A stretch of 64,000 nt of DNA from Escherichia coli (GTDB lineage: Bacteria; Pseudomonadota; Gammaproteobacteria; Enterobacterales; Enterobacteriaceae), in the NCBI RefSeq assembly GCF_003334815.1, contig NZ_QOWO01000018.1. One strand, 5' to 3'. The translations under genes were made by a program, and so were the position numbers. This document shows positions 57,679 through 58,447 of this stretch, piece after piece (position 1 is the first letter of the stretch; the number at the start of each line of letters is the position of its first letter). The notes under the pieces are model-generated. The model was not told the origin of the DNA. It did no database searches and saw only the letters and a list, made by a program, of their open reading frames with translations.

Positions 57679-58447
57679 TACTTTCCAAACCTGTAATTTT
57701 TACAGGTGCATTCAGTTTCCTTAGTAAACCGGAAGTAAATAAGATACGTAGTACATATCAATAAAGGTTAAACGAGATTAAGTTTAATTATTTTCGATTG
57801 GGCTTAAATTTATGTTTTTTTTCCCGATGAGTGTCAATATGTGAACGGAAAAGGAATTCAATGGTTAAGTCAATATTTAGAAAAACTGAAAATATTGCTT
57901 TTTTGATAAGAAGAAAAAGACATTTGGTTTCATAAGGTTATTGGCAATATAACGTTCAATTCTTACTTGCATTTTATATTGGTCAGGAACTTTGCCCTGA
58001 AGTGTTAGGAATAGTCTTAATGCGCTGTGTGATGGACTAGTAAAAAAACAAGTTTTAAGGGTAAGGGATGGAATATAAAACTATGATGAGCTGTCATTGA
58101 AGATGATTTGCCAATCAGTAAGATATTTTAATGGATTAACATGCCGCACAAAATGGTTACAGGTGTTCATTCCAATAAGTAATGGAAAATTGAACGGGCG
58201 TATGTACGTCATCTGTTCGGTAAGCCCCCAAGAGCCAGATTAAGTGAAGTTAAACGAAGGCTGCCAGCTGTCACAGGAACGATGGCCTTTTTGTCAGGGC
58301 ACTGCATTCAGTTATCTGTGCGCGTTACTCTAACTGGCACTCGAACGTCGGCGACGGGGTTACCGGTGGATCAGACTGTTCCTGTGGCGTAAACGTTTTT
58401 ATGTTAGTACCAACAGATTTACCACATTTATCATCTTAACAGTTTGA

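Follow-up and report, generated by a model that had tools for sequence, protein, structure and literature searches.

Locus and composition

The analysis concerns two AT-rich stretches in a 64,000-nucleotide stretch of Escherichia coli DNA (contig NZ_QOWO01000018.1, hereafter the window): region 1 (57679-58447), upstream of ecpR, and region 2 (59585-60698, 1114 bp), upstream of the inverse-autotransporter gene eaeH/fdeC. Window positions 57000-61000 are 100% identical to E. coli K-12 records. In the RefSeq annotation of the identical K-12 record the gene order is ecpC, ecpB, ecpA and ecpR (minus strand), followed by ykgL (58454-58681, plus strand), ykgO and ykgM (58716-59119, minus strand), ykgR, a fragment described as hypothetical and missing its N-terminus (60058-60147, minus strand), and eaeH/fdeC (plus strand, start 60699). 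In MG1655 numbering (U00096.3) 57631-58453 corresponds to 311289-312111 and region 2 to 313243-314356 (window coordinate + 253658). Both stretches are AT-rich regulatory DNA lying ahead of ecpR and eaeH/fdeC; a sequence-only reading of the window had placed them before adhesin and pilus regulators.

The same reading had noted that the two stretches are AT-rich compared with the neighbouring coding DNA, and windowed guanine plus cytosine (GC) content bears this out: 36.8% in region 1 and 39.1% in region 2, against 52.8% for the whole window and 54.7% for ecpCBA. Among equal-sized windows across the 64 kb, 0.7% are as AT-rich as region 1 and 2.3% as AT-rich as region 2, and all of these overlap the same locus. 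The low GC content extends beyond the intergenic DNA, in that the block 57050-60700, small genes included, has a GC content of 39.2% (ecpR 39.1%, ykgL 43.9%, ykgO and ykgM together 44.5%). The statement that neither stretch holds an open reading frame (ORF) of 60 aa or more is correct for region 1, where the largest is 48 aa, but not for region 2; the largest ORF lying wholly within the latter is 52 aa, while a 97-aa ORF with a GTG start (60532-60825) covers its final 167 bp and enters eaeH out of frame. Repeat searches of both regions return short two-copy matches only, at chance level. Neither stretch contains a convincing gene.

The ecpR control region

The DNA upstream of ecpR was aligned between the window, divergent Escherichia, five Klebsiella species and Pantoea (nine sequences, three genera). 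The left edge of region 1 (57679) rests on a GTG start for ecpR (matA), whereas RefSeq uses ATG 57630 (coding sequence 57088-57630, minus strand). This ATG is invariant in all nine sequences, and because the 16-codon GTG extension (to 57678) carries an in-frame stop in Klebsiella, ATG 57630 is the conserved start of ecpR. With this as the true start, the true intergenic region becomes 57631-58453, or 823 bp.

Upstream of the start codon lies the ecp core promoter (57807-57837, minus strand), composed of a -35 element TTGACA (57837-57832) and a -10 element TAAATT (57812-57807), with a tract of eight A residues (57815-57822) in the spacer. Across E. coli, divergent Escherichia, the five Klebsiella species and Pantoea, TTGACA never varies and TAAATT hardly does. 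Judged from this conserved promoter, ecpR transcription would start at about 57799, 7-8 nt past the -10 element. The promoter reportedly lies 121 bp upstream of the ecpR start codon, and a start at 57799 is 121 nt from GTG 57678, in agreement with that figure. Together with ATG 57630 the proposed start would give a 5' untranslated region (UTR) of 169 nt (57631-57799, minus strand; 32% GC) and not one of 0.8 kb, so that the description of region 1 as a long leader does not hold. RNAalifold finds no consensus structure for the ecpR 5' UTR across the three genera (-0.53 kcal/mol, zero compensatory pairs), and an Rfam scan of 56900-61000 at E <= 1 returns zero matches; the suggestion that the stretches may hide small RNAs gains nothing from either result.

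The promoter spacer varies in length between lineages: the window has 19 bp, Klebsiella has 17 bp, and six further Escherichia sequences are intermediate at 18 bp. On the ecpR strand the homopolymer at 57815-57822 has eight A residues in the K-12-type window and seven in the six other Escherichia sequences. The exact K-12 allele, taken as a 68-mer, is found in 947 records of complete E. coli genomes; the other 2061 matching E. coli records were sampled, and most of them span 67 bp, one base shorter than the K-12 allele. The spacer that is longer by 1 bp could weaken the K-12 promoter and contribute to the poor pilus expression of K-12-type strains.

Further upstream, conservation is confined to a small number of blocks. 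The block CAATAACC-N-TATGAAA-NN-AAATG (57921-57943, minus strand), at approximately -122 to -144 from the proposed start, is nearly invariant in the three genera and constitutes a putative protein-binding site; it has no match to the consensus for IHF within one mismatch. It is followed by two TTCCT boxes (58011-58007 and 57989-57985, minus strand; -212 to -186), which are separated by a 17-nt spacer and conserved in nine of nine sequences. The first box is enclosed by a conserved near-palindrome, TTAAGA-N-TA-N-TCYTAAC (58020-58004, minus strand), with TCCT following 17 nt on. EcpR reportedly binds two distal TTCCT boxes, with IHF needed to counter H-NS, and we take the boxes at 58011-58007 and 57989-57985 to be this binding region. 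The most distal block in the cross-genus alignment, TTTTGTGCGG (58144-58153, minus strand), marks the point near 58160 at which similarity between Escherichia and Klebsiella ends, and BLAST finds none beyond it. The remaining DNA up to ykgL (58161-58453, about 290 bp, 45.7% GC) is an Escherichia-specific spacer that presumably contains the ykgL promoter and is without counterpart in Klebsiella and Pantoea. In strain E2863 (L002, 1-1993) homology to the window begins only at 58393, and the DNA upstream of the equivalent position lacks the ecp region and holds genes for an AlpA-like helix-turn-helix protein and for a hypothetical, membrane-like protein of 129 aa, which suggests a hotspot for insertion or replacement about 60 bp upstream of ykgL.

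The composition of the ecp core (57631-58160, 32% GC) bears on how its AT-richness arose. In all seven foreign loci GC content is low just upstream of ecpR (21-42% over 600 bp) and in ecpR itself (33-45%), against 46-58% for the loci overall; the foreign upstream DNA has diverged past alignment except in the discrete conserved blocks. Since low GC content was kept in Klebsiella and Pantoea while the sequence diverged, the composition appears to have been maintained and not merely inherited from a donor. It is accordingly unlikely, though not far-fetched, that the AT-richness merely survives from horizontal acquisition, with no upkeep for regulation. Some predictors do flag the locus as a genomic island or as foreign (columns A, C and E of Table 1 in PMC3661553), and the neighbourhood varies between strains through insertions of insertion sequence (IS) elements, deletions and island insertions. 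Set against this, the ecp structural genes, with a GC content above the window mean, do not share the bias, and the AT-rich tract is limited to ecpR and about 530 bp upstream of it and recurs in Klebsiella and Pantoea despite divergence beyond alignment outside the blocks. The label xenogeneic, under which the stretches had been presented as silencing targets, is therefore not supported, the AT-rich tract being kept in Klebsiella and Pantoea, in loci of 51-58% GC, next to GC-rich structural genes.

Region 1 also contains the 24-codon ORF that the sequence-only reading had singled out as an example of a possible hidden small ORF. The ORF is present (57861-57935, plus strand), with an ATG start preceded at 5 nt by AAGGA, and it is open at the same length in seven of seven Escherichia sequences, one of them only about 85% identical. 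The codon differences tell otherwise: 11 of 11 are non-synonymous (three relative to O157 and eight relative to the divergent Escherichia locus L004), leaving no sign of purifying selection on the peptide across lineages. The start codon is missing in Klebsiella even though the surrounding DNA blocks are conserved there, and at about 30% GC we estimate that some one in seven 24-codon frames would be open by chance. The ORF is not in one published small-protein table, and K-12 RefSeq lists only ykgR as a small protein here. It persists because it overlies conserved ecp regulatory blocks. The ORF is thus probably not a gene, and we regard a small protein gene concealed at this position as highly improbable. 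The small-protein names ykgV, ykgU and ykgS belong to other chromosomal loci and do not apply to this stretch.

Region 2 and a possible fdeC leader RNA

Region 2 is a composite, made up of the ykgR upstream DNA, the remnant of an oxidoreductase gene, a deletion junction and the native upstream DNA of fdeC. It is bounded on the left by ykgR (59483-59584, minus strand), which is annotated in RefSeq and encodes a small membrane protein of 33 aa (it scores 78 bits with NCBIfam NF041474, for which the cut-off is 40). The adjoining 59585-59700 (minus strand, about 115 bp) is a conserved ykgR upstream region comprising promoter and 5' UTR, with 92-94% identity to L004. Beyond this segment identity to L004 falls to 0-70%, and the span from the ykgR promoter to the stop codon of the deleted oxidoreductase gene (59701-60057, about 360 bp) is a poorly conserved spacer with 0-50% identity. 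None of the small ORFs of region 2 (37-52 aa) remains open in L004. The conserved DNA ahead of ykgR also carries a hairpin (59612-59626, minus strand) with a 6-bp stem and a T-run after it, 18 nt before the ykgR Shine-Dalgarno sequence; it could end upstream transcription or belong to the ykgR 5' UTR.

The spacer is followed by the 3' remnant of a gene for an OYE-family NADH-dependent flavin oxidoreductase (60058-60149, minus strand), consisting of the last 29 codons and the stop codon. Of these 29 residues 28 match residues 352-380 of an intact 380-aa O157-type protein, which itself matches OYE/NamA-type NCBIfam families, and RefSeq labels the remnant as incomplete and missing its N-terminus. 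It presumably corresponds to the K-12 pseudogene ykgP. The remnant ends abruptly at the junction 60149/60150, where 4715 bp present in O157:H7-type strains are missing and 1 nt of microhomology is found. The breakpoints are defined by alignment to locus L003, in which window positions 59282-60149 correspond to 5700-6565 and window positions 60149-61000 to 11281-12133. The missing block contains five genes, encoding the oxidoreductase, an alpha/beta hydrolase, a LysR regulator, a hypothetical protein and an aldo/keto reductase, and is present in O157:H7 and in sequence type 131 (ST131). The 1114 bp of region 2 are contiguous in 2807 of 5426 complete E. coli genomes. Most of the others have them split after base 565 (window 60149), where an NADH-dependent flavin oxidoreductase is annotated; region 2 is split in about 44% of E. 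coli genomes. The collinear 29-residue remnant of an intact gene, together with the sharp breakpoint, identifies the K-12-type arrangement as the product of a deletion. Divergent Escherichia likewise has reductase genes at the right-hand breakpoint.

To the right of the junction, 60150-60698 (549 bp) is the native fdeC upstream DNA and forms a single block in 5021 of the 5426 genomes. Its first part (60150-60466, 34.7% GC) is the distal portion of the divergent intergenic region that separates fdeC from the aldo/keto reductase gene; the latter is intact in ST131, strain 104 and MRY15-117, where it begins 15 bp left of the junction. This part varies between phylogroups (14-19 variable columns per 100 bp) and is not shared with the L018 and L019 lineages. 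The remainder (60467-60698, plus strand, 232 bp) begins at TTGCACAAAAAGCTAAATT and constitutes the promoter-leader core of fdeC/eaeH. Similarity to two other Escherichia lineages, whose FdeC proteins are 89% and 78% identical, starts abruptly at 60467 with TTGCAC, and the core contains a perfect -10 element TATAAT (60504-60509) that is invariant across the compared Escherichia lineages. E. coli genomes themselves hardly differ over roughly the last 270 bp ahead of fdeC, where only about 14 alignment columns vary. Region 2 is therefore not one leader, as it had been called, since its last 549 bp alone are native to fdeC and only the last 232 bp are conserved.

These results also bear on the idea that each stretch is transcribed from its far end into a long 5' leader, of ecpR or of eaeH, and that this RNA is itself regulatory. 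Intergenic distances of 823 and 1114 bp would leave room for such leaders, and a promoter-like sequence TTGATA-16-AATAAT (60024-60051, plus strand) could give an eaeH leader of about 640 nt in K-12-type strains. In about 44% of E. coli genomes, however, 4.7 kb of DNA with five genes comes between the 60024 site and fdeC, and no more than the 232-bp core is shared with other Escherichia lineages. On the ecp side the three-genus promoter lies 169 nt from the ATG, with nothing conserved upstream of about 58160 and a 5' UTR devoid of conserved structure. We consider it very improbable that either stretch functions in this manner.

The conserved core before fdeC is predicted to fold into three consecutive hairpins on the plus strand. 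Hairpin 1 (60587-60610) has a stem of 10 bp, hairpin 2 (60611-60625) a G+C-rich stem of 5 bp that is followed by a U-run (60626-60630), and hairpin 3 (60638-60661) a stem of 8 bp. The 156-nt fold before fdeC has a z-score of -3.76. In an alignment of eight sequences the three helices comprise 23 pairs, 99.5% of the pair cells being standard pairs, and each helix shows one compensatory double change, for a total of three drawn from only three independent lineages. The covariation score is reached by one of 500 shuffles, and controls in which the partner strand was slid pair at 34-63%. Five helix positions use G-U pairs, which are compatible with plus-strand RNA only. When the three lineages are folded separately the same architecture is predicted, with hairpin 3 enclosed by a pairing between the U-run and the Shine-Dalgarno region; the predicted pairing joins 60626-60633 to the AGGA (60685-60688) ahead of ATG 60699, and the predicted unpaired probability of the Shine-Dalgarno sequence is about 0.1 in the three lineages. 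Both partners of this pairing are invariant and so carry no covariation signal.

The search for additional sequences gave little. A DNA-pattern scan of metagenomes for variant hairpins returned one contig of an already-known type, and complete E. coli genomes searched with two divergent leaders yielded no closer relatives. Two apparent FdeC homologues, P0026 and P0036 (loci L021-L028; 66-77% identical), are assemblies of bisulfite-converted E. coli reads in which every C reads as T, and they were excluded because such assemblies would give false covariation. Bisulfite-converted assemblies in public protein and contig collections are a source of false divergence. In strain 104 (L016) hairpin 2 reads CGGGGATTTCCCG instead of CGGGAAATCCCCG, so that the loop is exactly inverted while the stem is kept, the outcome that template switching at an inverted repeat would produce.

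A structured element thus does exist upstream of fdeC, and to that extent the notion of something hidden in these stretches was not empty. It is conceivable, although we hold it only tentatively, that the last 232 bp before fdeC/eaeH encode an undescribed structured leader RNA that imposes a second control step after transcription initiation. A similarly tentative extension is that the U-run would either end transcription early (attenuation) or block the ribosome-binding site, in a role that supplements H-NS and does not replace it. The low z-score of the fold, the helices kept in two other Escherichia lineages with one compensatory pair each and several G-U intermediates, the shared architecture including the U-run/Shine-Dalgarno pairing, and the abrupt onset of conservation at 60467 with inclusion of a perfect -10 element all argue for a functional RNA. 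In published work, enterohaemorrhagic E. coli (EHEC) shows detectable FdeC only from 39 C upwards and expression in avian pathogenic E. coli (APEC) depends on temperature, and such temperature dependence would be consistent with control by a leader. The covariation, however, amounts to three pairs from three lineages, and the hairpins may sit upstream of the transcript. When a longer stretch is folded, the Shine-Dalgarno sequence pairs elsewhere, with a partner that is not conserved; the 5-bp stem of hairpin 2 (-5 to -9 kcal/mol) is weak as a terminator, Rfam offers no match, and the temperature control is explicable by H-NS alone.

RNA thermometers of the fourU type, such as that of Salmonella agsA, and attenuators built on intrinsic terminators occur in 5' leaders. 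The putative fdeC leader resembles them in that its U-run is predicted to pair with AGGA and in that a G+C-rich hairpin is followed by a U-run. It differs in the lack of a predicted melting transition in the physiological range, its pairing partners are invariant, and it is at most a candidate member of the class. Reading the leader as an RNA thermometer was set aside, since the opening of the Shine-Dalgarno sequence predicted in silico is gradual (0.07 to 0.15 over 30-45 C). The three-hairpin element was not found in the literature examined, nor in Rfam, and may be new.

The fdeC/eaeH gene of this window differs from that of MG1655. There is no IS3 at 61575, the element that truncates eaeH in K-12, and some 2.28 kb, relative to full-length fdeC, has been lost from within the gene, so that the 616 N-terminal codons run directly into the last ones and form a 654-aa ORF (60699-62663). 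The deletion arrangement (60699-62663, 61575-62999) has no one-piece match among the complete E. coli genomes in the collection.

Between the two regions, ykgL is annotated as frameshifted in three examined strains and as a shorter hypothetical protein in an O157-type strain, and it matches no NCBIfam family; RNA sequencing nonetheless lists a convergent overlap of ykgL and ykgO. Its status as a real gene may be doubtful. Immediately upstream of ykgM lies a perfect palindrome, GTTATGTTATAACATAAC (59131-59148), which we presume to be the Zur box of the zinc-regulated ykgMO operon of L31/L36 paralogues. The published constitutive ykgMO promoter, TTGAAA-17-TATCTT, is flagged HNS; it corresponds to 59181-59153 (minus strand), adjoins the palindrome and was recovered by our own promoter scan.

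Probable H-NS silencing and its context

Taken together, both stretches are very probably ordinary, already characterised AT-rich adhesin control regions that are silenced by H-NS and opened by specific regulators. To this reading the present analysis contributes the composition, the remnant and junction, the promoter blocks and the hairpin covariation, and we infer the exact transcription starts; what EcpR, IHF and RcsB do, like the occupancy and repression by H-NS, is taken from the literature. For region 1, the promoter island 310529_398 "ecpR(-)/ykgL(+)", of 398 bp and one of 78 islands, is H-NS-bound in all three studies by chromatin immunoprecipitation on microarrays (ChIP-chip) (PMC3661553). 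By our own coordinate conversion it falls at approximately 57649-58046 of the window, in the AT-richest part of the region. Published work has H-NS repressing all RcsB auxiliary regulators including MatA, and a MatA-RcsB heterodimer activating mat; that EcpR works with IHF is reported by secondary sources. For region 2, eaeH lies within a transcriptionally silent protein-occupancy domain of K-12, where an inserted lac-gfp cassette is silenced (Bryant et al., 2014; PMC4191405). The silencing is relieved when the eaeH silent domain is replaced (PMC4191405), and a later study gives a GC content of 37% for the 1 kb flanking the eaeH reporter site. By its title, Easton 2014 describes FdeC as regulated by H-NS and temperature. 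The proposal that the two stretches are H-NS targets is thus supported by the literature on the ecpR/ykgL spacer and on eaeH/fdeC.

At the ecp locus RNA polymerase would start near 57799 (minus strand) from the cross-genus promoter, and EcpR would bind the two TTCCT boxes some 190-210 bp upstream. An H-NS filament would cover the 32%-GC tract from inside ecpR to about 58160, leaving the remaining 290 bp to ykgL as a lineage-specific spacer, and EcpR, which according to the literature needs IHF and partners with RcsB, would counter this filament. In region 2 the 4715-bp deletion in the K-12-type lineage would have fused the ykgR upstream DNA and the oxidoreductase tail to the native fdeC upstream DNA, so that only the last 232 bp would represent the conserved fdeC control unit.

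Several observations weigh against this interpretation. The ecpR transcription start, the EcpR boxes and the IHF dependence draw on an abstract and secondary citations, and the fdeC start, which would lie near 60516, is placed from a single element, the invariant TATAAT. The high-affinity H-NS motif TCGATAAATT has no match within two mismatches in 57679-58447, and its matches instead cluster at 57452-57542, in the ecpR coding sequence, and at 59313-59364, in the ykgM-ykgR spacer. No IHF consensus within one mismatch is found in the conserved ecp core, for which both motif scans are uninformative. A consensus scan of 57000-61000 finds no excess of promoter-like sites, with 6 sites, fewer than the 13.1 +/- 4.1 in shuffles. 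The cluster inside ecpR comprises three motif matches, one of them with a single mismatch at 57523, and region 2 holds two sites with two mismatches. Both the AT-rich tract and any nucleation of H-NS probably reach into ecpR.

In comparison with known systems, region 1 is the published ecp/mat regulatory region (Martinez-Santos et al., 2012, J Bacteriol 194:5020; Lehti et al., 2012; Pannen et al., 2016), the same locus with the same elements, from which nothing essential differs. What is added is the conservation of boxes and promoter in Klebsiella and Pantoea, the start at ATG 57630 and the spacer tract of eight versus seven A residues. Region 1 also overlaps a listed H-NS-bound promoter island (Shavkunov, 2009; Panyukov and Ozoline, 2013; PMC3661553), while the plain -35/-10 scan shows no excess here; the island definition uses its authors' own scoring. 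Region 2 lies before the same gene, and has the same AT-rich, reporter-silencing upstream DNA, as described for fdeC/eaeH (Easton et al., 2014, Appl Environ Microbiol 80:7337; Bryant et al., 2014, PMC4191405), with the difference that in the window and in K-12 this DNA is fused by the deletion to the ykgR side. H-NS silencing of both adhesin control regions is already known.

The finding thus re-discovers two textbook-style cases of H-NS silencing and, as given, changes nothing. In K-12-type strains the 1.1 kb of "non-coding" DNA ahead of eaeH is the scar of a five-gene deletion and not one regulatory unit. The covarying hairpins before fdeC and the A-tract polymorphism in the ecp spacer remain as minor leads. 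If it proves true, a leader RNA may account for the restriction of FdeC to 39 C or above. Since FdeC is a vaccine candidate and little is understood of the conditions under which it is expressed, a control step based in the leader is of interest.

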